From contig CAZVUM010000011.1 in NCBI GenBank assembly GCA_964629575.1, forward strand, positions 75,299 through 87,586: a DNA stretch of 12,288 nt. The letters are read 5' to 3'. Each line of letters starts with the position of its first letter. Positions within the stretch are counted from its first letter, which is position 1. Below are positions 44 through 12,067 of this stretch, in pieces. The translations under genes and the position numbers were made by a program. The notes under the pieces are model-generated. The model was not told the origin of the DNA. It did no database searches and saw only the letters and a list, made by a program, of their open reading frames with translations. The stretch comes from an uncultured Acidimicrobiales bacterium. Its GTDB lineage: Bacteria > Actinomycetota > Acidimicrobiia > Acidimicrobiales > Poriferisodalaceae.

Positions 44-1057
44 ATGAAGGTTGATGGCGGAATTGGCGTTGACAGCGGTTTCGACGGGGTGATGGACAAG
101 TCCCGCGAACAAGAGGAGATGGGGTACGACGGGCTCTGGGTGCCCGAGACCAAGCACGACCCGTTCACGATCCTGCCGTTGATGGCGATCGCGACCGACC
201 GGGTCGAGATCGGGACCAACATCGTGGTCGGGTTCGCCCGCAACCCGATGACCCTGGCGACCAGCGCGAACGACATCCAGCTTCTGTCCGAGGGGCGATT
301 CATCCTCGGCCTCGGCAGCCAGATCAAGCCGCACATCACGAAGCGTTTCTCGATGGAGTGGTCGAAGCCGGCGGCGCGGATGCGGGAGATGATCCTGGCG
401 ATTCGGGCGATCTGGCGGACGTGGGAGACCGGCGAGAAGCTCGATTTCCGCGGCGACTTCTACACGCACACGCTGATGACGCACTTCTTCGATCCGGGAC
501 CCAACCCGTTCGGCAGCCCCAAGGTCGCGCTGGCCGGTGTCGGTCCGCTCATGACCGAGGTGGCGGGCGAGACCGCCGACGTGTTCCTGTGTCACGGGTT
601 CACGACGGAGAAGTACCTGCGCGAGGAGACCATCCCGGCGCTGGAGCGTGGCGCGGCGAAGGCCGGCCGTTCGATGGATGAGATCACGATCTCGGGTCCG
701 TCGTTCATCGCCACGGGCAACGACGAGAAGCAGCTCGAAGCGGCCAAGAGCGGTGTGAAGCAGCAGATTGCGTTCTACGGCAGCACCCCGGCGTACAAGC
801 CGGTGTTCGACTGTCACGGGTGGGGCGAGCTGCAGCCCGAGCTCAACGGCCTGTCGAAGCAGGGCAAGTGGGTGGAGATGGGGAACCTGATCGAGGACGA
901 GATCCTCGATGCGTTCTGTGTTGTCGCCGAGCCCGAGCGGGTCGCCAGCGAGCTGAAGCGTCGCTACGACGATGTGGTCGACCGGGTGAGCTTCTACGCG
1001 CCGTACAAGTCCGACGCCGAGCGGTGGCGCCCCGTGTTCGAGGAACTCAAGGCGTAG
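44..1057 (+). CDS. LLM-class (luciferase-like monooxygenase family) flavin/F420-dependent oxidoreductase
   Basis: The 340-aa ORF in this frame runs 35..1057; this call uses the first ATG at 44 (the ORF track begins 3 codons earlier at TTG). N-terminus MKVDGGIG...YDGLWVPETKHDPF, together with the TIM-barrel-like motif run (GRFILGLGSQIKPH, FYGSTPAYKP), is characteristic of the luciferase-like/F420-dependent oxidoreductase family. GC3 is high throughout this frame. Stop TAG at 1055-1057. Confidence 0.85.
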   Translation: MKVDGGIGVDSGFDGVMDKSREQEEMGYDGLWVPETKHDPFTILPLMAIATDRVEIGTNIVVGFARNPMTLATSANDIQLLSEGRFILGLGSQIKPHITKRFSMEWSKPAARMREMILAIRAIWRTWETGEKLDFRGDFYTHTLMTHFFDPGPNPFGSPKVALAGVGPLMTEVAGETADVFLCHGFTTEKYLREETIPALERGAAKAGRSMDEITISGPSFIATGNDEKQLEAAKSGVKQQIAFYGSTPAYKPVFDCHGWGELQPELNGLSKQGKWVEMGNLIEDEILDAFCVVAEPERVASELKRRYDDVVDRVSFYAPYKSDAERWRPVFEELKA

Positions 1058-1060
1058 CCG

Positions 1061-1975
1061 GTGCTGCGCGAGCCCCTTGAGATTCGGGAAGTGGGGCCCC
1101 GCGACGGGCTCCAGAACGAGGAGACCATTCCGGTCGATCAGCGCGTCGCGCTGATCGACGCGCTGTCGGGGACCGGTCTTCGGGCGATCGAGGCGGCGTC
1201 GTTCGTTCACCCGAAGGCCATCCCGCCGATGGCGGGATCGGGCGAGGTGATGGCGGCGATCGATCGTCACCCCGATGTGCGCTATCGGGTTCTCGTTCCC
1301 AACGAGCGCGGTGCGCACGACGCGCTGGCTGCTGGGGCTGACGAGATCGAAGTGGTGATGTCGATCTCGGAGACGCACAACCGCAAGAACATCAAGATGT
1401 CGCCCGAGGACAGCGTGGATCAGATCGTCGCTCTGACCGAGTTGGCCCACAGCGAGGGAACTCCGGTCGAGGCGATCCTGTCGACGGCGTTCGGTTGCGC
1501 CTATGAGGGCGATGTCGATCCGGCGCGGGTCGCCCATTTCACCCGACGGGTCATCGACGAGGCAGGGGTCGAGGGTGTGTCGTTCGGCGATACGAGCGGC
1601 ATGGCGTCACCGCGGGTGGTGAACGAGCTCCTCGATGCGCTCGAAGCGGCCGACGTCGACGTGAGCGAGATCGGGCTGCACTTTCACGACACTCGCAACC
1701 TCGGGCTGGCGAACATCTTGACCGGCGTCGAGCGGGGCGTCCGCAAGTTCGACGCATCGATCGCCGGACTCGGCGGGTGTCCCTACTCCCCCGGCGCGAC
1801 GGGAAATGTCGCGACCGAGGATGTGGTGCACATGCTCGAAGATCTCGGGTACGACACGGGCGTCGACCTGGAGTCGCTGATGTCGGCGGGCCGCCTCGCC
1901 GAAGAACTCGTGGGACGACAGCTGCCCTCTGCGGTTCTTCGAGCCGGCCCCCGAACCCGCACCGTCCCGGCCTGA
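1061..1975 (+). CDS. Hydroxymethylglutaryl-CoA lyase family enzyme (HMGL-like DRE-TIM aldolase/lyase)
   Basis: N-terminal IREVGPRDGLQNE is the hallmark HMGL-like motif. There are two later HxH-type metal-ligand regions (GLHFHDTRNLGLAN; DASIAGLGGCPYSPGATGN). The GTG start at 1061 lies 3 nt after the LLM stop, which is a coupled arrangement. Stop TGA at 1973-1975. ATG/GTG choice is uncertain by a few codons. Confidence 0.85.
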   Translation: MLREPLEIREVGPRDGLQNEETIPVDQRVALIDALSGTGLRAIEAASFVHPKAIPPMAGSGEVMAAIDRHPDVRYRVLVPNERGAHDALAAGADEIEVVMSISETHNRKNIKMSPEDSVDQIVALTELAHSEGTPVEAILSTAFGCAYEGDVDPARVAHFTRRVIDEAGVEGVSFGDTSGMASPRVVNELLDALEAADVDVSEIGLHFHDTRNLGLANILTGVERGVRKFDASIAGLGGCPYSPGATGNVATEDVVHMLEDLGYDTGVDLESLMSAGRLAEELVGRQLPSAVLRAGPRTRTVPA

Positions 1976-2097: not shown

Positions 2098-2910
2098 GTG
2101 GACACCACTCTGGTCACAACGGACGCATCGTTTCCTGCGAAGCGGCGCTTCGACATCGACGAACCGGCGGCGGCTCGCCGCGTCGCGCACGCGTGGCCGT
2201 GGGCTCTCGTCGGTGTCATCGCGATTCCGACGGCCTGGGTCGACCTCTACGTCGTCGCCCGCACGATCGACCGAACGTGGATGTGGGCCCTGGCCATCGC
2301 CGGGCAGTCCCTGGCCGTGTTCCTGGCGACGGCCTCGGTTCGCAGAGCGGCTGCGGGACGACTCTTCGAATCGAAAGCGGCCAACCGGAGAGCAGGGCAT
2401 TTCCTCGGTGCGCTCCTTCTACTGCCTTACACAGTGTTCGCCGAGCAGCACCGAACCGCCCGCCTGGCCGCCCGTCGCGCCGACGGGTCGCCATGGGCAC
2501 TCGACGGAACCGGCATGACCGGTCTCGCCATCGACGCCACGGCTCGCCGGGGCGGCGGGTATGAAGCGTGGCGAGAGTCCTTCAGGATCCTGGCCGGCGA
2601 GACTCACGCCGAGACCCACTCCCCACAACAGATCCGTTCGGCCCTCGTGAGCGTCGTCTCGTGCGTGTGGATGCTGACCGTCGCGATCGTTGGGTTTCGC
2701 TTCTCCACTCAGGCGTGGGCGGCCGCCTGGCTGCTCCCCCTCGCGATCGGGACGACAACCGCCTTCGTCGTCGGACGCATCGGCAGGCCGAACCGCATCG
2801 CCGTGGATCGCCGGGCTGTCGCGTTCGAGGTCGTCGGACCCGGGCCCCTCCCCGAGATTCAGCCGATCAGCCCCCGCTCGCGCAGCTGGGCGATCTCGGC
2901 CGGCTCGTAG
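2098..2910 (+). CDS. Hypothetical integral membrane protein (about 5 predicted TM segments), no recognisable family
   Basis: The ORF is open over 2086..2910. I place the start at GTG 2098 because GGAGG at 2088-2092 lies 5 nt upstream. Hydrophobic stretches (WPWALVGVIAIPTAWVDLYVVA, WMWALAIAGQSLAVFLATA, FLGALLLLPYTVFA, ALVSVVSCVWMLTVAIVGF, AAAWLLPLAIGTTTAFVVG) and high GC3 in this frame support coding. The 3' end overlaps the convergent CoA-transferase by about 52 nt. Confidence 0.4.
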   Translation: MDTTLVTTDASFPAKRRFDIDEPAAARRVAHAWPWALVGVIAIPTAWVDLYVVARTIDRTWMWALAIAGQSLAVFLATASVRRAAAGRLFESKAANRRAGHFLGALLLLPYTVFAEQHRTARLAARRADGSPWALDGTGMTGLAIDATARRGGGYEAWRESFRILAGETHAETHSPQQIRSALVSVVSCVWMLTVAIVGFRFSTQAWAAAWLLPLAIGTTTAFVVGRIGRPNRIAVDRRAVAFEVVGPGPLPEIQPISPRSRSWAISAGS

Positions 2911-4058
2911 CCACCCACCTCCGCCAACACGCTGTCGGTGTGCTCACCCAGTCTGGGACCGAGTGTCTGGATCTCGCCCGCCGTCCGTGAGAAGTGTGGA
3001 ACCGGAGCCGCCATCGGCACCTCGGCGGCGAGAACCTCGTCGTCGAAGCGTCGAATCATGTCCCGCGCCGCGAACTGTGGGTCGCCGAGCATGTCGGGAG
3101 CGGTGAAGATCCGCCCGTAGGGCACAGCGTGCTCGTCGAGCAGTGCCTCGAGCTCCACGACGGCCAGGCTCGACGTCCACCCCTCGATGAGCTCGTCGAG
3201 TTCGGTCTGATTTGCACCCCTGGCCTCGTGCCGGGCGTACCGGGGGTCCGTCGCCAACTCTGGCCGCCCCATCGCCGAACAGAGTCGTTCGAAGATCGCA
3301 TCGGCGTTGCCCGCGATGAGCACATCGGCGCCGTCGGCGGTCGCATAGACATTGGACGGCGCAACTCCCGGGAGCACCGACCCCGACCGCCCCCGCACGT
3401 GCCCGGCCAGCTCGTAGTCCACGACCGTGGATTCCATGAGGGCGAACACCGCCTCGTAGATGGCCACGTCGACCTCCTGCCCGCGGCCGGACACGTGACG
3501 CTCGTTGAGCGCGGCCATCGTCCCGACGACGGCGAAGAGGGACGCGATCGCATCACCGAGGCTGATGCCGGCCCGCGTGGACTGTCGGTCAGGCCAGCCG
3601 GTCGTGTGCCGGATGCCGCCCATTGCCTCACCGATCGACCCGAATCCCGGATCGGTCGCCCGCGGCCCTGTCTGGCCGAACCCCGACACGTGCGTCATCA
3701 CGAGACCCGGGTTGTCTGCGCTGAGGTCGTCGTAGCCGAGACCCCATGCCGCCAGACGCCCTGGTGTGAAGTTCTCCAGCACGACGTCGGATTGGCTCGC
3801 CAGGCGCCGAACGATGGCGCGGCCGTCGTCGGTTCGAAGATCGATGGTGATCGACTTCTTGTTGCGGGCGATGGCGGGCCACCAGTAGCTGTGGCCGGCC
3901 GCGTCGCACGTGCCCCACTTGCGCATCGGATCGCCCAGCCGTGGCGGCTCCACCTTGATCACCTCGGCCCCGTAGTCGCCGAGCAGCTGTCCGGCGAAGG
4001 GCCCAGCGATGAAACTTCCGAGCTCGAGAACGCGGACCCCTGCGAGAGGACCCGCCAC
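2859..4058 (-). CDS. CoA-transferase family III (CaiB/BaiF/Frc-type) acyl-CoA:acid CoA-transferase
   Basis: GVRVLELGSFIAGPFAGQLLGDYGAEVIKVEPP is the classic family-III N-terminal motif. The C-terminal end ...AEIAQLRERGLIG is typical of the family. The ORF tool extends it to 4193. I place the start at GTG 4058..4056 because the upstream gene's TGA (4062..4060) is followed 1 nt later by this GTG (TGAcGTG), and that start gives the canonical N-terminus VAGPLAGVRVLELG. Confidence 0.85.
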   Translation of the reverse strand: MAGPLAGVRVLELGSFIAGPFAGQLLGDYGAEVIKVEPPRLGDPMRKWGTCDAAGHSYWWPAIARNKKSITIDLRTDDGRAIVRRLASQSDVVLENFTPGRLAAWGLGYDDLSADNPGLVMTHVSGFGQTGPRATDPGFGSIGEAMGGIRHTTGWPDRQSTRAGISLGDAIASLFAVVGTMAALNERHVSGRGQEVDVAIYEAVFALMESTVVDYELAGHVRGRSGSVLPGVAPSNVYATADGADVLIAGNADAIFERLCSAMGRPELATDPRYARHEARGANQTELDELIEGWTSSLAVVELEALLDEHAVPYGRIFTAPDMLGDPQFAARDMIRRFDDEVLAAEVPMAAPVPHFSRTAGEIQTLGPRLGEHTDSVLAEVGGYEPAEIAQLRERGLIG

Positions 4059-4059
4059 G

Positions 4060-4437
4060 TCAGGCGGTCGAACCGAGCGGCGCGCAGTCCGAACCACAGT
4101 CCGCGGCCGACCCCTCGGGTGCAGGTGCGGGGCGGTGGAGGACACCCGACGTCGGGGTGACGACGAGCTCGTCGCCGTCCACGGCGCACTCACCGTCGAC
4201 GATCATCGAGTACCCGCCCTCCTCATGGGGCGGCCACAACACCGACATGGTCGGCCGATCAGCGACATTGCGGGCCGCAGTCCGGCTCGCGCCACACCGA
4301 AGGGCGCCGTCCTGCAGGGTGAAGGTCACGTGCGCAACGTGCGGGGTCGAATCGTCGCGCACCGTGAGGACATAGGCCGAGGCGCCGAATCGTTCGAGCT
4401 CCGCGGCCAGCTGGCTGACATCGACAGGAATGCTCAT
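4060..4437 (-). CDS. Small PNPOx-like (pyridoxamine 5'-phosphate oxidase family) FMN/F420-binding split-barrel protein
   Basis: The 125-aa ORF has an ATG start. The sequence AYVLTVRDDSTPHVAHVTFTL...TMSVLWPP...GYSMIVDGEC has the flavour of PNPOx/general-stress split-barrel proteins. It is translationally coupled to the downstream CoA-transferase. The family assignment is from memory of the motifs, not from a search. Confidence 0.55.
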   Translation of the reverse strand: MSIPVDVSQLAAELERFGASAYVLTVRDDSTPHVAHVTFTLQDGALRCGASRTAARNVADRPTMSVLWPPHEEGGYSMIVDGECAVDGDELVVTPTSGVLHRPAPAPEGSAADCGSDCAPLGSTA

Positions 4438-4488: not shown

Positions 4489-7400
4489 TCAGTCCATGCG
4501 CCGCAACAGGCTCTCCAGCGCGCCCTGCAGGGTCGAGTCGAGCTGGCCCAGTGCGCTGGCGACCGGATCGGGTCCGTCGGGCTCCCGACGAGCTGCGAAC
4601 GCTGCAACGATCTGATCCCATCTCGCCCGTTCGTCCTCGGTGAGCACACCGCGGAGTTGGCGTAGCTTCAGCGTGTTCTCCTCCGCACCCGCGGCGAGGG
4701 TCTGCGCCTCGCCGATGTAGTGGTCGTCGAGAAGGTCCTCCACCTCCTCGGAGGACATGACGGGGACGACCTTCTCGGCAAGGCGGTTCATGTTGCGGTA
4801 CGAGCCCTGCAGCCGGAACGGCGGCTCGGTGCGATAGTCGTCGGCCGTCGCGGCAGACGCGATGTACTGCAGGTTGACGGCGAGCACCGCTTCCTGAATT
4901 CGCAGCAGATGGCCGACCACACGGGTGATCTGATCGATCTCGACGGCGGAGTACGGGTGCGACAACTCCTCCGGAGACACGGGCTCGCCTCGCGCCAGAT
5001 CGACGAAACGCAGCAGGTCGCCGGGATCCCGACCGGCGAGCGGCGCGAGCACCGCGTTGGAGGTGAGCGCGTTCTGGAGATAGCTGAGAGCGAACTGCTC
5101 CTCCCGACCGCTGAGCACGTCGCCGAGATTCCACGTGTCGGCCCTGTTGGCCAACATGTCGGGGATCTGGAAGCTCTCGCCCGACTCGGTGTAGGGGTTT
5201 GCGGCCATCACCACGGCGAATCGCTTACCGCGTAGGTCGTAGGTGCGCGTGCGGCCGTTCCAGACGCCCTCGACTCTCCGCTGCCCGTCGGACAGGGAGA
5301 TGAACTTCTGCAGAAGCTCGGGGTTCGTGTGCTGGATGTCGTCGAGATAGAGCAGAACGTTGTTGCCCATCTCGAAGGCGAAGTTGATGCGCTCCACTTC
5401 CTGCCGCGCCGTTGCATCGGGGGCCTCGGCCGGATCGAGGGAGGTGACCTCAGTGCCGAGTGCCGGGCCGTTGACCTTCACGAACACGAGACCCAACCGA
5501 TCGGCCACGTACTCCATCAGCGTCGTCTTGCCGTACCCGGGCGGCGAGATCAGAAGCAGCACGCCGGACTGATCGACCCGACTCCCGCCGACGGTCCCGA
5601 GTTGCTTGGCCAGGTTGTCGCCGATCAACGGGAGGTAGACCTCGTCGATGAGCCGGTTGCGCACGAATCCGCTCATTACGTTGGGAACGAACTCCTCGAG
5701 CCGCAACCGCTCACGCTCTCGGGTGAGCAGCCCATGCCGGGCAGCCTGATAGGCCGCAAAGCCCGGCTGCACCTCGGCGGCGTGGGTGTGGACCCGATCG
5801 AGCAAGTCGTCGAGGCGGGTCACCAGCCGACCCTCGACGATGCGGTCGTGGTCCGACAGCAGGCCTTCGACCGTGATCGCGAGGTCGATCTCGACAGGGC
5901 GACGTTCGACGTCTGCGACGATCGAGGCGGCGATCTCGGGTGCCTCGTCTGGCAGGAAGCCCTCCGCCGAGAGCCAGCCGCGGACCCACCCATCCACCAC
6001 CCGGTACCACCCGGCCTCGTCGTCGCCCAGGCTGCGCTGGGCGTCGAGGAACACGGATTCGTTACCGCTCGCGCTCAGCCAGTTGCGGAACGCGTGCAGG
6101 TGTTCGACCGAGGTGGTGCTGGTGGCGAAGGTGGGGACCTCCTCGGCGACCTCCATCGCGAGGTACCCGGCGACGCGGTCCGGATCGACGGCGAGGTCCC
6201 ACCCAGCGCAGAACTCGGCGACCGATGCGACCAACGTCGTCGAGAGTGCGTCGAATCCGCCGTCCTCCCGGAGCGACTCCCGCAGGGCAGCGGCCGCTCG
6301 GGCGGTCGCGTGGATACGACGTCGCTCCGCCTCGCTGAGCCCGTGCGCCCAAAACAGCTGGGCGGCCGATCGGACCGCTGCGAGGACCCGCAACAGGCCC
6401 GCATCGGAGAAGGTCCGAACCGCGGCCGCCAAGATCAGCGCCGCATCGGCATCGTGCACTCCGCGTTCGTACCCCTCCGCAAAACGGGTCTCGATCGCAG
6501 CGCGCACGACATCCACCAGGCGGTCGGTGGCCGCCGCCGAGAGATCGGCGAGCGAACCATCGGATTCGGCCCCGAGCAGAATGGTGCCGGCCAGATACTC
6601 GGCGCGGGAGAGATCCGGGGACTCCGAGCTGACCCGCATGTTCCAGTACGGCCGCGTCTTCTCGAACTCCGGATCCACGACCGGCTCGCGGTAGTCGGTG
6701 CCCACCAGGAGGAGATCTACCCCGTCACCAGAGGGCACGAGCGACGCCTCCAGTGCCTGGCTGTTGACGCTGAAGCGGTGGGCCCCGAATCGGATGACAT
6801 CGCCACCGTCCTCGAAGATGTCGAGCTGATCCCGCAACCCTCGCTGTGCCTGCTCACCTGCGGCGGACAAACGAAGCAGGATCTCATCGGCCCGCACGAC
6901 CTCGCCGAGCTCCCGCAGTTCGGCGACGATCGAGCGCAGCCGTTCGATCATGGGGTCGCCGGCGAAGAACGCAGCCACCTCGGTGGGCTCGGAGAACGAC
7001 GCCGCCCGCCGGGTCACCGTGGCGAGCACCCGGGTCGCAGCGTCATCGAGGCGTTCGGCAGTGCGAAGCCGACCGTCCACGAGCGCCTGCTTACGAGCCG
7101 CGAAAGCGTCGTAGACGTCGTCGCGCTTGTCGTGGATCTGCGAGGCAAACTCAGCGACGGCGCCGAATCGGCCCTCGAGGTTCTCCAGAGCCACCAGCAT
7201 GCGACCGAGCTGCTCGTCGGCGGCTTCGGGAGACGCGGATTGGGCGAGTGCGCCGGCGACGCTCTGGGTCACCAGGCTGAACTCTGCGCCGAACTCCGCC
7301 CGACCCTCATGCTCGGCGAGCTCCGTGCGGCGTCGCTCCAGCAGGGCCCGCACCCGATTGGCGACGCCAACCACCTCACCGATTCGGCCGAGGATGCTGG

Positions 7401-9384
7401 TTCGGACCACCGGATCGGCCACGTCGAGGCCCGAAACGACATCCGACACGACGTCGAGCTCGCGTCCGAGCTCGTCGAGCTCGGCGCCTACGTCTTGGGC
7501 CTGCACCGTCGTCTCGAGGCCAACCACCTCGCGCTCGTGGTCGGTCAGGCGCTGGTGGAACGGGTCGAACGATGAGTCCGCTGCGAGGTGTTCGACCGTT
7601 CGTTCGGCGAGGTCGGCGAACGTCGAGTCGAGATCGGCGTCCAACTCCTCGAGACGGGCCTCGTCGACATACCGCAGGTCGCGCAGCGTGACGAGGGTTC
7701 CGCGGTGCTCACGTAGCTGAGCCAGAAGTGACGTGTGGTCGTCCGACCGTTCGATCGTTCCACGCGACCTGGCATCCAGATCGCGAAGACGAGACGCCGC
7801 CTCGTCGACGCGAGTCGCGGCTGTTTCGCGGAGGGCTTTCACCTGAGCGAACTCGTCGAGGACGAGACCGGCAATCTCTCGAATATCGCGGACGACATCG
7901 GCGATGCGTCCCACCTCGGCATCGTCGAGCCAATGATGCGCGTCCATGGTGCGCGATGCCGCGGCGATCAGGTCCTCGAACGCCCGCTCCCCCTCGGCGC
8001 GGGACCGGGCGAGACGACCCACGGTCAGGGCATCGCTGATCCCGCGAACCAACTCGGCATTGCCGATCCGGGCCAGTGGGCCGGTGTCGACAGCGTGGGC
8101 GGCCTGGTGCTCGTCGGACACATACGGGGTTCGCCACACCTGCATCGGGTGAACGCGAGTCGGTTCGGCGTCCGTGTCTCGGAACACCACGAGGTGGCCA
8201 TCGTCGAACCGGCATACGCCGTGGCACTGGATGGGTGTGTGGACGTCCTTGCGCACCTGGTTGTACGACAGCAGGACGTAGCTGCCGACTTCGCGGTTGC
8301 TGAACGTGTAGAGCACGTCTTCGCCGTTGGGCGACCTGACCACCGACTCGAACTCCATGTCGGTGGTGTCCACGTCGAACGCCCGGTGCTCACCGTCTTG
8401 GAGGTGAAAGCCGCCGGGAAAGATGACCCCGTGGTCCTCGGGCAGCGTCTGACACGCGAGCGCGATGGCGTCGAGGCGGGTCACCGTGCTCGACCGTCGG
8501 TTGAACACGTAGGTGCGTTCGTGTGTCTCCCTGTAGGGCGTGATCCGCAAGAGGATGAGCGATCCGCGTACCGCATAGTCGACCATGCAGTCGGCCAGGC
8601 TCTGCTCGGCATCGTCGACCGGCTCGACGAGGATCACCGCTCCATCGGGCGTGTTGTCCTCCGCCCGGAGCTCCAGCGAGCCGCCCGTCGGATCGATGAA
8701 GACCTCGTCGATCACCGATATCGCGGGGTGCCGTCCACCGCGATGGTCGGCCCGGCCAGTGGGCGTCCATTCGAAATCGAACCGCGGCGGGAACCGGTAG
8801 TCGCGGTCCCCGCGCGAGTCGATGTACTCACAGTCGCCCTCGGGCGTGAGTCGCCACCGGAACACCCGCACGTCCTCGAGCGTCGCTCCGATCTGAAATG
8901 CAGCGAGCAGGCGCTCGCCGGTGTTGACCAGGTCGAGCAGCCGAGCCGCCTTGTAGTAACGGTAGAGATCGATGAACTCCTCTTCGAACCGCGGGTCGGC
9001 GAGGAAGTAGCCGGGGTCCTCCACCCCGACCTGGTGAAGATCGACGTCACCTCCGCCGGTGAGGGCGAGACGGTGAAGGGCGAACACGTCGGCGGGGCGG
9101 ATCGTCTCGCGCAACCCGATGAAGACGTTGTACCCGAAGAGAAGGAGCTCGCCGACCTGCACCACATCGCGGGGGACGCAGCTGTTCTCGGTGCGGATTC
9201 GGGCGCCGCCGACCAGTTCGATCGTGGTCGCGCCGAACTCGGCGACTCGGCGATTGTTGAGCTGGTGGGCCCGCGACGCGAGTTCGGTTGCGCTGGCGCT
9301 CAGCCGCTGCTGGAGCAGTTCGTAGGCTCCAGCGGCGATCTGCTCTCCGTTCCCGTCGTTGGCCTGCGTCGACGCGTCGCTCAT
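4489..9384 (-). CDS. Giant (1631 aa) multidomain protein with a single C-terminal AAA_5-type (MoxR/dynein/midasin/McrB-like) P-loop ATPase module. N-terminal about 480-aa domain and about 800 aa of helical/acidic linker are of unknown function. Proteins of this kind are often auto-annotated vaguely as 'DNA repair ATPase' or 'AAA family ATPase'.
   Basis: A continuous 4.9-kb ORF with high GC3. Walker A LLLISPPGYGKTTL is encoded at about 5521-5560. Walker B VLLYLDDIQH is at 5329-5355. A sensor-1-like AVVMAANPY...IPDMLANR is typical of AAA_5. The ATG at 9384..9382 overlaps the flotillin TGA (ATGA at 9381-9384). Stop TGA at 4491..4489. Confidence 0.9.
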   Translation of the reverse strand: MSDASTQANDGNGEQIAAGAYELLQQRLSASATELASRAHQLNNRRVAEFGATTIELVGGARIRTENSCVPRDVVQVGELLLFGYNVFIGLRETIRPADVFALHRLALTGGGDVDLHQVGVEDPGYFLADPRFEEEFIDLYRYYKAARLLDLVNTGERLLAAFQIGATLEDVRVFRWRLTPEGDCEYIDSRGDRDYRFPPRFDFEWTPTGRADHRGGRHPAISVIDEVFIDPTGGSLELRAEDNTPDGAVILVEPVDDAEQSLADCMVDYAVRGSLILLRITPYRETHERTYVFNRRSSTVTRLDAIALACQTLPEDHGVIFPGGFHLQDGEHRAFDVDTTDMEFESVVRSPNGEDVLYTFSNREVGSYVLLSYNQVRKDVHTPIQCHGVCRFDDGHLVVFRDTDAEPTRVHPMQVWRTPYVSDEHQAAHAVDTGPLARIGNAELVRGISDALTVGRLARSRAEGERAFEDLIAAASRTMDAHHWLDDAEVGRIADVVRDIREIAGLVLDEFAQVKALRETAATRVDEAASRLRDLDARSRGTIERSDDHTSLLAQLREHRGTLVTLRDLRYVDEARLEELDADLDSTFADLAERTVEHLAADSSFDPFHQRLTDHEREVVGLETTVQAQDVGAELDELGRELDVVSDVVSGLDVADPVVRTSILGRIGEVVGVANRVRALLERRRTELAEHEGRAEFGAEFSLVTQSVAGALAQSASPEAADEQLGRMLVALENLEGRFGAVAEFASQIHDKRDDVYDAFAARKQALVDGRLRTAERLDDAATRVLATVTRRAASFSEPTEVAAFFAGDPMIERLRSIVAELRELGEVVRADEILLRLSAAGEQAQRGLRDQLDIFEDGGDVIRFGAHRFSVNSQALEASLVPSGDGVDLLLVGTDYREPVVDPEFEKTRPYWNMRVSSESPDLSRAEYLAGTILLGAESDGSLADLSAAATDRLVDVVRAAIETRFAEGYERGVHDADAALILAAAVRTFSDAGLLRVLAAVRSAAQLFWAHGLSEAERRRIHATARAAAALRESLREDGGFDALSTTLVASVAEFCAGWDLAVDPDRVAGYLAMEVAEEVPTFATSTTSVEHLHAFRNWLSASGNESVFLDAQRSLGDDEAGWYRVVDGWVRGWLSAEGFLPDEAPEIAASIVADVERRPVEIDLAITVEGLLSDHDRIVEGRLVTRLDDLLDRVHTHAAEVQPGFAAYQAARHGLLTRERERLRLEEFVPNVMSGFVRNRLIDEVYLPLIGDNLAKQLGTVGGSRVDQSGVLLLISPPGYGKTTLMEYVADRLGLVFVKVNGPALGTEVTSLDPAEAPDATARQEVERINFAFEMGNNVLLYLDDIQHTNPELLQKFISLSDGQRRVEGVWNGRTRTYDLRGKRFAVVMAANPYTESGESFQIPDMLANRADTWNLGDVLSGREEQFALSYLQNALTSNAVLAPLAGRDPGDLLRFVDLARGEPVSPEELSHPYSAVEIDQITRVVGHLLRIQEAVLAVNLQYIASAATADDYRTEPPFRLQGSYRNMNRLAEKVVPVMSSEEVEDLLDDHYIGEAQTLAAGAEENTLKLRQLRGVLTEDERARWDQIVAAFAARREPDGPDPVASALGQLDSTLQGALESLLRRMD
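5100..5600 (-). other. AAA_5-type ATPase core of the giant protein (P-loop, Walker B, sensor-1 region)
   Basis: GYGKTT is encoded by 5521-5538 (minus). LLYLDDIQH is at 5329-5355. (V)VMAANP is around 5200-5230. Domain boundaries are approximate. Confidence 0.7.
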
Positions 9385-11426
9385 CGCAGGAGCTGGCCGA
9401 CCGGAACGTCACCCAACCCCGCACCCTGCGCCGCTTCGAGGATCTGGCCGAGCTGGCCGGCTCTCTCGCCGGAGCTAGCGGAGATCATGCGGCCGAGGAA
9501 CGCAGCGAGCGTCAGATCGCCGATCCCCGAAGCACCGAGGCCCGAAACAGCGTCGCCGATGTCGGCGACGAGATTCCGCTCGCCCTCCAGGTACGGACCC
9601 ATGACCGTGGACGTGGTCTCGGATCGCTCGACGAACTGGTCGACGGCCTTGCCCCCCGACACTGCGCTGACGATGCGGTCGACGAAGATGTCGCTGCCAC
9701 CGACGATGTCGATGTCGGCGTTGGAGAGACCCGACGAGATCGCCTCGGCCTGGGCTTGGGCGATACCGACGTTGGCGTCGACTTCAGCGAGGCGTACCTG
9801 GACATCTGCATCGAGACGCCTGCTGAATTCCTCGAACTCTTGACCGACGCCCTCGAGCTCTCGCATGGCATCGGCCTTCTCGGTGAGGCCAGACGCCTCG
9901 CCCTTGAGCTTCGCCTCGGTCGCCTCGGCTTCGGCCGTGCCCTTCTCGCGCACCACATTGGCTTCGGCGAGGCCCTGCTTTTCGGTGGCGAGGGCGTCGG
10001 CCTCCTTGACGTGCACCTCGGCCAGACCGAGCTTCTCGATGGCCAGCGCGTCGGCCTCCTTCACGTGCACCTCGGCCAGACCCTCTGCCGCAAACTCGGC
10101 CTTCGCGCCCTCGGCGAGCTTGATCTGGGCCTCCGAACGCAGGCCTGCCGACTCCAACTCGGCGTTGGCGATGGTCACCTCTTCCTTGGCCCGGTGGTTG
10201 GCGGCAGCTTCCGAGGCCTCCGCGGCCTTGATGTCCTTGACGAAGGACGCCTGAGCATCACCTTCGGCCTCGAGAACGACAGCGTCCTTCATCCGGCTGG
10301 CATCTTCGACCACCCGCAGCGTGGCGATCGCTTCCTCCTCGCGAGCGACGTCCTTCTCGACCGCGACCCGATCGCGCTGGAGCTCGGCGATCGCCGCCTT
10401 CTCCTCTTCGAGGGATCGCTCGGCAGCGGTGGTCTCGACCTCTCGGTTGACCACCTCGATCTGGCGAGCCTTCTCGACCTTCTCGGTCTCGACCGCCACG
10501 ACGCGCTCGCGGTTCTTCGCTGCCACATCGATCTCGCGCAGACGGTTCTCGTCGTCGATACCGATGGCGAGCTCCGCTGTGATCCTGGCCTGCTCTGCAC
10601 GCTGATGTTCTTCGGCCTCGACCTGCAGGGTCGCCGACGCCTCCCTGGCGCGCACCACCTCGATCTCGCGCTTTTGCCGCGCCTCGGCCTCGGCCTGCTG
10701 CCGTTCGAGTTCGAGCACCGCCTCTCGGGTCTCGACGTTCTTGCGAGTGAGCGCCTTGGTCTCCTCGTTCTGGGCCTCGTTGGTCGCCACGTGCTCGATC
10801 GCCGTGAGCTCGGTGATCTTCCTGATGCCCTCGGCATCGAGGATGTTGTTCTCGTCCAGTAGTTCAAGCGGTGTCTGCTCGAGATAGTCGATCGCAGCGT
10901 CCTCGAGCACGTACCCGTTGAGGTCGGTACCGATGATCTGCACGATCGCATCGCGGAAGCGGTTTCGCTCGGTGTACAGGTCGACGAAGTCGAACTGCTT
11001 GCCCGCAGTCTTGAGAGCCTCGCTGAACTTGGCGTTGAAGAGCTCCTCGAGCGTCACCTGGTCGCTCGCCCGCTCGGTCCCGATGGCCTGGGCCACCTTG
11101 ATGACGTCCTCGGCGGTCTTGTTGACCCGAACGAAGAAGCGCACGGCGATGTCGGCCCTGATGTTGTCCTGGCAGATCAACCCGTCCTGGCCTCGGCGGT
11201 CGATCTCGATCGTCTTGACCGAGATGTCCATGATCTCCGCCTTGTGAATCACGGGGATCACGACGCGGCCGGTGAAGGTCACCACCACGTCCTTCATGGT
11301 GCTGACGACGAGCGCTTTGCCCTGGGGCACCTTCCGGAAGAGGCGACTGACGAGGAGCGCGATGCTCAACAGCACCACCAGGACGATGCCCACCACCGTC
11401 GCGATCGCAATCAGAACGCTGTTCAT
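9381..11426 (-). CDS. Flotillin-family protein (SPFH/band-7 domain plus long EA-rich coiled coil; YqiK/FloT-like)
   Basis: N-terminal TM/hairpin MNSVLIAIATVVGIVLVVLLSIALLV. SPFH-type region (KALVVSTMKDVVVTF..., VKTIEIDRRGQDGLICQDNIRADIAVRFFVRV...). This is followed by about 350 aa of E/A/K/R-rich heptad-like repeats (EAEARQKREIEVVRAREA...), typical of flotillins. ATG at 11426..11424 overlaps the upstream NfeD TGA. Its own TGA overlaps the giant gene's ATG. Confidence 0.9.
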   Translation of the reverse strand: MNSVLIAIATVVGIVLVVLLSIALLVSRLFRKVPQGKALVVSTMKDVVVTFTGRVVIPVIHKAEIMDISVKTIEIDRRGQDGLICQDNIRADIAVRFFVRVNKTAEDVIKVAQAIGTERASDQVTLEELFNAKFSEALKTAGKQFDFVDLYTERNRFRDAIVQIIGTDLNGYVLEDAAIDYLEQTPLELLDENNILDAEGIRKITELTAIEHVATNEAQNEETKALTRKNVETREAVLELERQQAEAEARQKREIEVVRAREASATLQVEAEEHQRAEQARITAELAIGIDDENRLREIDVAAKNRERVVAVETEKVEKARQIEVVNREVETTAAERSLEEEKAAIAELQRDRVAVEKDVAREEEAIATLRVVEDASRMKDAVVLEAEGDAQASFVKDIKAAEASEAAANHRAKEEVTIANAELESAGLRSEAQIKLAEGAKAEFAAEGLAEVHVKEADALAIEKLGLAEVHVKEADALATEKQGLAEANVVREKGTAEAEATEAKLKGEASGLTEKADAMRELEGVGQEFEEFSRRLDADVQVRLAEVDANVGIAQAQAEAISSGLSNADIDIVGGSDIFVDRIVSAVSGGKAVDQFVERSETTSTVMGPYLEGERNLVADIGDAVSGLGASGIGDLTLAAFLGRMISASSGERAGQLGQILEAAQGAGLGDVPVGQLLR
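9994..10083. repeat. Tandem in-frame direct repeat (54-nt period, about 36-nt near-identical core, 2 copies) inside the flotillin coiled-coil region
   Basis: gcgtcggcctccttgacgtgcacctcggccagacc at 9994-10028 and gcgtcggcctccttcacgtgcacctcggccagacc at 10048-10082, with 1 mismatch. This encodes the duplicated peptide LAEVHVKEADALA(I/T)EK. Confidence 0.8.
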
Positions 11427-12067
11427 GTCTGCCCTTCTTCCCCACTCGGGGAGTTGTTGCTGTCAGCATCCGGCGGGGTGTCGTCGAACGACAGGTCGGC
11501 CGGAACGACCGTGTAGACCTCGTTGGAGTCGTCGTGGTCGACGACGATCACCTCGTCGCCGCGCCGGATGTCGACGCCGACCCGCGCCCGGCCTTCCACC
11601 AGCAGCACCGAGCCCTGGGCGTCGGTGAGCTCCACCTGGCCGTAGCGGTCATCGAGCCGCTCCGTGCGCACCCGCCCGATCGAGCCGATGAAAGCCGAGC
11701 GGGAATCGGCCTCGCTGGTCTCCATCATCCGCCCGAGAGGGCGAGCGAGCAGGACAGCGAACGTCGCGCCGACCGCGACGGACAACAGCAGGACGAGAAT
11801 CACCACCACGAGGGCGATCCCGTCACCGAAGACCGAGACGAAGATCACGCTCGTCAGCCATCCGCCGGCGCTCAGAAAGGTCAGCACCGCCGCCGGCGGA
11901 ACACCCCCCAGCTGCACGGCATCGAGCATGCCTTCGACCGGCCCGCCGAGATCGATCTCATCGCCGATCCCCAGCACCGCCATCAGCAGCCACCACCCGA
12001 GGCTGATCGCGAGCAGCACCGTGAACACGATCGTGGGGAAGGAAAAGATGATGTCGAAGAAGCTCAC
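11423..12067 (-). CDS. NfeD-like (YqiJ/YuaF-type) membrane protein with C-terminal OB-fold, the canonical flotillin operon partner
   Basis: Two hydrophobic blocks (FFDIIFSFPTIVFTVLLAISLGWWLLMAVLGIG; ALVVVILVLLLSVAVGATFAVLLA). The C-terminal motif GSIGRVRTERLDDRYGQVELTDAQGSVLLVEGRARVGVDIRRGDEVIVVD matches the NfeD OB-fold beta-barrel pattern. The gene lies directly upstream of the flotillin with an ATGA overlap. The start codon (GTG at 12067) is uncertain. Confidence 0.75.
   Translation of the reverse strand: MSFFDIIFSFPTIVFTVLLAISLGWWLLMAVLGIGDEIDLGGPVEGMLDAVQLGGVPPAAVLTFLSAGGWLTSVIFVSVFGDGIALVVVILVLLLSVAVGATFAVLLARPLGRMMETSEADSRSAFIGSIGRVRTERLDDRYGQVELTDAQGSVLLVEGRARVGVDIRRGDEVIVVDHDDSNEVYTVVPADLSFDDTPPDADSNNSPSGEEGQT

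Follow-up and report, generated by a model that had tools for sequence, protein, structure and literature searches.

The window analysed here is a stretch of 12,288 nucleotides (nt) from an uncultured Acidimicrobiales bacterium (contig CAZVUM010000011.1, positions 75,299 to 87,586), and its dominant feature is a very long reverse-strand open reading frame (ORF) at 4489-9384, the product of which is referred to below as the giant. This ORF is a real gene, because an identical protein (P0001) has already been called on a 16-kb metagenome contig of the Joint Genome Institute (JGI), protein searches returned more than 5,500 homologues, the Pfam family DUF3686 is matched with 594 bits, and the structure models of the chain have high predicted local distance difference test (pLDDT) values. 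The gene stands third in a compact cassette, after a gene for a YqiJ-like membrane protein and a gene for a YqiK-type flotillin (Table 1). The stop codon of the YqiJ-like gene and the start codon of the flotillin gene share an ATGA at 11423-11426, and the flotillin stop and the giant start share another at 9381-9384. Since these overlaps join all three genes, translational coupling of the cassette is suggested.

The two partner genes were identified by comparison with E. coli proteins. A profile built from the flotillin orthologues was aligned with E. coli YqiK using hhalign (probability 99.9%, E 2.7e-33, 415 columns), and the YqiJ-like protein was aligned with E. coli YqiJ (88%, E 3.2e-6). 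Searched alone, the 681-aa flotillin-like protein matched nothing in Pfam or the PDB; the Band_7 cut-off was passed by only 8 of 42 flotillin orthologues, and the orthologues in two other genomes likewise had no precomputed Pfam match. The difference between this single-protein result and the family-level match to YqiK indicates that the flotillin subfamily goes unrecognised in routine Pfam annotation, so that automated pipelines do not see the linkage described below. At 9977-10082, in the coiled-coil region of the flotillin, a 54-nt unit is repeated in tandem (2.0 copies, 90% match), so that GLAEVHVKEADALA[I/T]EK is encoded twice.

Linkage was surveyed in 80 genome loci, 77 of which included DNA upstream of the giant gene. 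In 77/77 of these the giant gene is immediately preceded by a flotillin-like gene in the same orientation; Actinomycetota, Myxococcota, Gamma- and Betaproteobacteria and Acidobacteriota are among the groups represented, and the flotillin partner supposed in an earlier reading of the window from its letters alone (the sequence-only reading) was thereby borne out. A YqiJ-like gene was detected by tblastn in 67 loci. The trio is also present in independent gene calls for Litorilituus and Hoyosella, and annotated Hymenobacter (Bacteroidota) and Deinococcus (Deinococcota) plasmid records have the same arrangement. No generally conserved fourth gene was found across the loci, only lineage-specific additions. 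One such addition is a pair of genes, DUF2170 (CesT/Tir-like) and then PspA/IM30, found immediately ahead of the cassette in the Hymenobacter locus and 13 proteobacterial loci; pspA was detected beside the cassette nowhere else. The obligate, coupled linkage of a soluble, motif-intact ring-type ATPase to the flotillin/YqiJ pair is the strongest fact to come from the analysis.

Table 1. Coordinates of the cassette, of the segments and motifs of the giant protein, and of examples of linked pspA genes in other loci. Nucleotide positions are those of the window unless a locus is given.
Feature	Residues	Nucleotides (strand)	Remarks
Giant ORF, DUF3686 - DUF7902 - AAA+ family		4489-9384 (-)	1631 aa, 4896 nt, ATG start; NCBI name 'DNA repair ATPase'
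YqiK-type flotillin (SPFH) gene		9381-11426 (-)	681 aa; one N-terminal transmembrane segment
YqiJ/YuaF-like (short NfeD, DUF1449) membrane protein gene		11423-12067 (-)	214 aa; hydrophobic segments
Disordered segment	1-19		AlphaFold2 model
Single helix	20-50		AlphaFold2 model
DUF3686 match	34-484	7933-9285 (-)	Pfam
Divergent beta-propeller-like domain	56-420	8125-9219 (-)	DUF3686 core; 50% strand, ~26 strands, 6-7 blades
Helical rod	436-856	6817-8079 (-)	88% helix; helices up to 58 residues; spectrin-like helical bundles
DUF7902 match	605-688	7321-7572 (-)	Pfam
Pre-AAA region, mixed beta/helical	863-1227	5704-6798 (-)	AlphaFold2, pLDDT >90 over most
Small beta domain of pre-AAA region	863-901		AlphaFold2
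Helical domain of pre-AAA region	927-1156		AlphaFold2
Beta element of pre-AAA region	1161-1190		AlphaFold2
Connecting helix of pre-AAA region	1191-1227		AlphaFold2
AAA+ alpha-beta-alpha core	1244-1420	5125-5655 (-)	Pfam, Foldseek, AlphaFold2 pLDDT >90
Walker A, SPPGYGKTT	1280-1288	5521-5547 (-)	Tyr1284 invariant
Walker B, VLLYLDD	1343-1349	5338-5358 (-)	DD invariant; usual pair is DE
Pre-sensor-1 beta-hairpin, RVEGVWNGRTRTYD	1370-1383	5236-5277 (-)	AlphaFold2 strands 521-526 and 529-534 of C-half model; conservation
Sensor-1 segment, AANP	1394-1397	5194-5205 (-)	N1396 invariant
PDMLANRAD	1408-1416	5137-5163 (-)	R1414 invariant, putative arginine-finger position, end of helix alpha4
Enlarged lid and C-terminal helical domain	1421-1631	4492-5124 (-)	AlphaFold2
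33-residue helix, possible pre-sensor-2 insert	1480-1512	(-)	AlphaFold2
QGSYRNMN, candidate sensor 2	1526-1533	4786-4809 (-)	Invariant; assigned from motif pattern
DUF2170-PspA/IM30 genes upstream of cassette		L042 3433-4765; L049 3728-5056; L070 3202-4316; L082 2574-3690; others	Gamma-/Betaproteobacteria

The giant family is coherent. The nearest named proteins are only 52-53% identical to the giant at 98-100% query coverage, and giant proteins from Actinomycetota to Gammaproteobacteria are collinear over their full length at 42-53% identity. Few indels are present in the alignment used to score conservation, which holds 81 sequences: the window protein and 80 homologues from genomes of the groups named above. 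The shared collinear order extends into the AAA+ module, with its motifs SPPGYGKTT, LYLDDIQH, NP and ANRAD. Only 13 of 72,556 plasmid records carry the family, most of them megaplasmids, and it is essentially chromosomal. The window gene is a rather divergent member of this family, which is known in silico and functionally uncharacterised. Homologues L038, L059 and L070 and others from Proteobacteria and Myxococcota have C-terminal extensions of ~100-500 aa with no Pfam domain, which the window protein, ending at residue 1631, lacks. In an Actinoplanes metagenome-assembled genome (L022, 7986-10526) the giant gene is broken by an in-frame stop, either as a pseudogene or through an assembly error. 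Two forward-strand ORFs antisense to the window gene (5329-7575, 748 aa; 7735-9843, 702 aa) are typical antisense artefacts of high-GC DNA.

One paragraph on the same operon and architecture has already been published by Ravi et al. (2024, mSystems, PMC11237479), who proposed a role in the assembly of sub-membrane complexes, drew an analogy with ESCRT, and reported that abbreviated operons without PspA are distributed more widely; the window cassette is one of these abbreviated forms. In literature searches for DUF3686, PF12458, and flotillin together with 'DNA repair ATPase', no mention was found, and Ravi et al. alone describe the family.

Pfam and the AlphaFold2 model agree on exactly one AAA module per chain, at the C-terminus and with its catalytic motifs intact, as had been proposed from the letters alone. 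Over residues 1276-1401 the AAA_5 profile scored 31.1 bits, above its cut-off, and the classical AAA profile 30.0 bits, and both families were matched by 43/43 family members. The motifs that had been picked out by eye were all found in their places, namely GYGKT (1283-1287), the hhhhDD Walker B (LLYLDD, 1344-1349), AANP and, in the N-terminal domain, CHGVC (387-391). Invariant in 81/81 sequences are G1283, Y1284, G1285, K1286, T1287, D1348, D1349, N1396, P1397, R1414 and R1530, so that GYGKT, the DD pair and the NP of the sensor-1 segment do not vary at all. Because the P-loop tyrosine and the DD Walker B are invariant, they are fixed features of the family and not signs of decay or degeneration, and the module appears from its intact motifs to be catalytically competent. 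It is also the best-conserved part of the giant (mean column conservation 0.82-0.87), with W1375, Y1382, R1385 and K1387 conserved in the region of the pre-sensor-1 hairpin. R1414 lies at the end of helix alpha4, the usual place of an arginine finger, which suggests an oligomeric ring.

The nearest relatives of the AAA+ fold were sought with Foldseek using the model of the C-terminal half. MCM subunits (E 3.5e-6), NorQ and CbbQ2 of the MoxR family (E ~8e-6) and RuvB of the HCLR clade (E 1.7e-5) were matched, with the best target-normalised TM-scores, 0.58-0.61, for NorQ and CbbQ2. Together with the modelled pre-sensor-1 hairpin, these matches group the module with the AAA+ clades that bear such a hairpin, among which it is probably nearest the MCM/MoxR group. 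This assignment is not sharp, because AAA and AAA_5 tie, a comparison of the AAA profile with E. coli RavA by hhalign was uninformative (probability 13.5%, the template being one single sequence), and no VWA partner is present. The MoxR/dynein type named in the sequence-only reading therefore holds as far as NorQ and CbbQ are among the nearest folds, but MCM and RuvB match with similar E-values; the accompanying analogies with McrB and midasin gained no specific support. Single-sequence and profile searches of the PDB with the AAA region reached no further than the P-loop segment of Rix7, p97 and RuvB, and NCBIfam and PADLOC scans returned no significant family.

The N-terminal residues (about 1250 by the earlier estimate) had been described as unassigned, and that description did not survive, since two Pfam families cover parts of them and the architecture is given by Ravi et al. 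(2024, PMC11237479). DUF3686 (PF12458) is matched with E 1.5e-178 and 594.3 bits (cut-off 25), over profile positions 1-448 of 448, and DUF7902 with E 8e-24 and 84 bits (cut-off 26), inside the helical rod. Both are families of unknown function, so that neither they nor the invariant AAA motifs supply the refutation for which the sequence-only reading had allowed; the description line of DUF3686 in Pfam reads "ATPase involved in DNA repair".

Structure was predicted in two AlphaFold2 models that together span the whole chain, with mean pLDDT of 89.8 for residues 1-870 and 91.7 for residues 850-1631. The models agree with the expectation of a beta-rich N-terminal domain followed by a helical stalk. 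A second helical domain ahead of the AAA+ module had also been expected, and it is present, but small beta subdomains on either side of it likewise precede the module. The middle region had been called extremely acidic; it is slightly more acidic than the rest, with 19.6% Asp plus Glu in residues 480-1000 against 17.0% in the whole protein (pI 4.7), and "extremely" is too strong. With the N-terminal half as query, Foldseek returned almost exclusively beta-propellers (CyRPA, paraoxonase, the Vps11 WD40 domain, the clathrin terminal domain, EED and nucleoporins) over ~400 aligned columns with probability near 1 and low TM-scores, and on the strength of these matches the beta domain is read as a divergent propeller of six to seven blades. 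For the N-terminal half the fold search points to a propeller and spectrin-like bundles. Sequence and profile searches of the PDB with residues 1-870, 425-860 and 858-1240 returned nothing at E <0.07. A protocoatomer relationship (propeller plus solenoid), suggested by the nucleoporins and clathrin heavy chain at the top of the Foldseek results, was considered and rejected because TM-scores were only ~0.1-0.17 and because the matches of the helical part are to spectrin-type bundles and not to alpha-solenoids.

The propeller domain used alone as a query gave 693 clusters at 50% identity; among the best 150 matches listed, the longest proteins have ~1590-2036 aa, with the match at the N-terminal end; those that are shorter probably represent fragments of genes. 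From these results the domain appears to be restricted to the giant-ATPase architecture. No transmembrane or hydrophobic segment was predicted in the giant protein, and each of the two neighbouring proteins has one or more. As modelled, the giant would be a soluble, cytoplasmic protein made up of a propeller-like domain, a ~420-residue rod, a ~365-residue pre-AAA region and one AAA+ module.

The genes that flank the cassette in the window are metabolic. A JGI ORF of 125 aa at 4060-4437 (-), just downstream of the giant gene, has no Pfam match and no counterpart in the 80 related loci, and for these reasons it probably does not belong to the cassette system, if it is a gene at all. A gene for a family III CoA-transferase lies at 2859-4193 (-); its longest ORF (444 aa, GTG start) places ~45 Arg/Pro/Ser-rich residues ahead of the Pfam domain, and the JGI product has 367 aa, which makes a start codon further downstream probable. 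In other genomes the flotillin and giant genes may be separated. In Pseudomonas and Lysobacter a small ORF of 79-86 aa lies between them (L042 7643-7879, L057 7558-7815, L078 7629-7868), with a weak TerB-like match (E 5.8e-5) just below the Pfam cut-off. In Lampropedia (L071, 4609-8001) a 3.4-kb insertion occupies the same place, and by eye its ORFs resemble an NYN-type protein and a nucleotidyltransferase/HEPN toxin-antitoxin pair.

The reading favoured here, and held with moderate confidence, is that the giant is a cytoplasmic AAA+ remodeller of flotillin (and PspA) membrane-stress scaffolds. The AAA+ modules would assemble into a ring, as the invariance of R1414, in the presumed finger position, suggests; the propeller and rod would reach out and presumably bind the cytoplasmic part of the flotillin/YqiJ assembly at the membrane; and hydrolysis of ATP would then remodel or disassemble the scaffold, or extract proteins from it, during membrane stress, the direction of the reaction being a supposition. 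Where pspA shares the operon, the ESCRT-III-like PspA polymer may be remodelled as well. A remodelling activity is supported by the nearest solved folds, which are those of remodelling or translocating rings (MCM, NorQ, CbbQ2 and RuvB). Other SPFH scaffolds are paired with AAA+ machines, HflK/C with FtsH and prohibitin with the m-AAA protease. The membrane-stress context is supported by the recurrent linkage to CesT/Tir-PspA genes and by the independent report of the same operon by Ravi et al. (2024, PMC11237479).

Several observations weigh against a remodeller. No experimental work on any member of the family was found in the literature. No pspA or CesT/Tir gene is present on the 16-kb contig of the window, and YqiJ/YqiK pairs without a giant ATPase occur, for example in E. 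coli, which shows that a flotillin can do without it. Within the module itself, the Walker B pair is DD instead of DE, and the stretch from strand beta2 to helix alpha2 lacks a conserved aromatic pore-loop residue; these two features would fit a processive unfoldase no better than a slow nucleotide switch.

The remodeller can also be put in a more specific form, which is offered only tentatively and by analogy. The giant may be a dedicated ATP-driven partner of flotillin, as FtsH is of HflK/C and Vps4 of ESCRT-III, with a six-subunit ring (1631 residues each, ~1 MDa) docking on the YqiK-type flotillin and YqiJ through its propeller and rods and driving assembly, disassembly or client extraction in membrane repair.

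The features of the module just described lead to the alternative that the giant is no motor but a nucleotide-dependent assembly switch or scaffold. Like initiator-type AAA+ proteins, it would bind ATP and hydrolyse it slowly, and this would determine when the propeller-rod chain joins or organises the flotillin platform, with no unfolding or translocation. This is thought unlikely on balance, although it would account for the invariant DD pair, the missing pore-loop aromatic residue and the fact that three quarters of the giant have an interaction-type architecture of propeller and spectrin-like rods. It sits less well with the nearest folds, which are active ring motors, with the AAA module being the best-conserved part of the protein, and with the conserved residues of the hairpin region, which could touch a substrate.

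In a second alternative the substrate is PspA alone: the giant would be a dedicated PspA/IM30 (bacterial ESCRT-III) disassembly ATPase, analogous to Vps4, for which flotillin and YqiJ merely provide a membrane platform. The operons headed by CesT/Tir-PspA genes, of which at least 13 are proteobacterial and one is from Bacteroidota, and the ESCRT analogy drawn by Ravi et al. (2024, PMC11237479), speak for it. It is nevertheless judged quite improbable, since pspA is missing from the window operon and adjoins the cassette only in the proteobacterial and Hymenobacter loci while flotillin is always there; moreover, no MIT-like domain was detected in the giant, and the fold of the AAA module lies outside the classical Vps4 clade.

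An anti-phage or conflict system, in which a giant NTPase bearing a propeller sensor would be linked to flotillin and YqiJ as membrane sensor, was considered because defence systems often contain giant NTPases that carry repeat domains, weak sub-threshold matches to IetA/IteA models were obtained in the P-loop region, and the insertion within the Lampropedia operon is toxin-antitoxin-like. The lack of any significant PADLOC match, the absence of effector domains (nuclease, protease or TIR) from the Pfam scan, the full-length collinearity of the giants across phyla, the rarity of the family on plasmids and the metabolic genes flanking the window cassette together make this highly doubtful. A genuine DNA repair ATPase, whether SMC/SbcC/RecN-like or an MCM/RuvB-like DNA translocase, is the least credible candidate, since the database name that suggests it matches the description line of DUF3686, no ABC/SMC signature (the ASRP match, E 0.04, is insignificant), nuclease domain, DNA-binding domain or conserved repair-gene neighbour was found, and the obligate partners are membrane proteins. 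In its favour are the database name, an AAA fold about as close to MCM and RuvB as to MoxR proteins, and a LexA-family regulator gene near the Hymenobacter locus.

The suspicion in the sequence-only reading that the 'DNA repair ATPase' label is not based on homology was supported, and thousands of database entries carry that name without a basis in homology. What bacterial flotillins do is a long-standing question, and deletions of single flotillin genes usually have weak phenotypes. In the loci examined the giant never occurs without a flotillin gene, and its invariant, mutable residues K1286, D1348/D1349 and R1414 offer an experimental handle on flotillin function. Should the six-subunit partner be real, it would supply the first defined biochemical output for bacterial flotillins.

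Comparison with known systems separates the giant from several ATPases that it resembles in outline. In the ABC-type SMC/SbcC/RecN proteins Walker A and Walker B lie at opposite ends of a coiled coil, whereas in the giant they are at residues 1283 and 1348, 65 residues apart in one AAA+ fold. STAND NTPases with WD40 repeats carry a NACHT or NB-ARC domain N-terminal to the repeats; the giant has the reverse order and no NACHT or NB-ARC match. Dynein and midasin concatenate six AAA modules, whereas the giant has one, and its residues 1-1240 are made up of propeller, helical bundles and small beta domains. As for McrB-type GTPases, which have a McrC partner, no McrC-like conserved neighbour was seen among the loci. 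The MoxR proteins (NorQ, CbbQ, RavA) are closer, having like the giant a single AAA+ module, a pre-sensor-1 hairpin and an NP-x-x-E-x-G ... P-x-x-L-x-N-R segment. They differ in being ~250-500 aa long with a VWA/MIDAS partner, whereas the giant has 1240 extra N-terminal residues, a DD Walker B and no such partner, the loci having no conserved fourth gene and the ORFs of the window no VWA domain.

The operon of Ravi et al. (2024, PMC11237479) has the same domain order, Pfam families and flotillin and YqiJ partners as the window, which differs in coming from an uncultured high-GC organism on a contig without pspA or CesT/Tir genes. The subset of giant loci with pspA recalls Vps4/ESCRT-III (CdvC/CdvB), since an AAA+ ATPase is encoded there with a member of the ESCRT-III superfamily; unlike Vps4, the giant has no detected MIT domain, belongs to a non-classical AAA clade and is linked to PspA only facultatively. 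Compared with HflK/C-FtsH, it lacks a protease domain and a transmembrane anchor, its AAA clade is not that of FtsH and its SPFH partner is of the YqiK type, but the giant cassette shares with HflK/C-FtsH and with prohibitin and the m-AAA protease the genetic pairing of an SPFH scaffold with an AAA+ ATPase.

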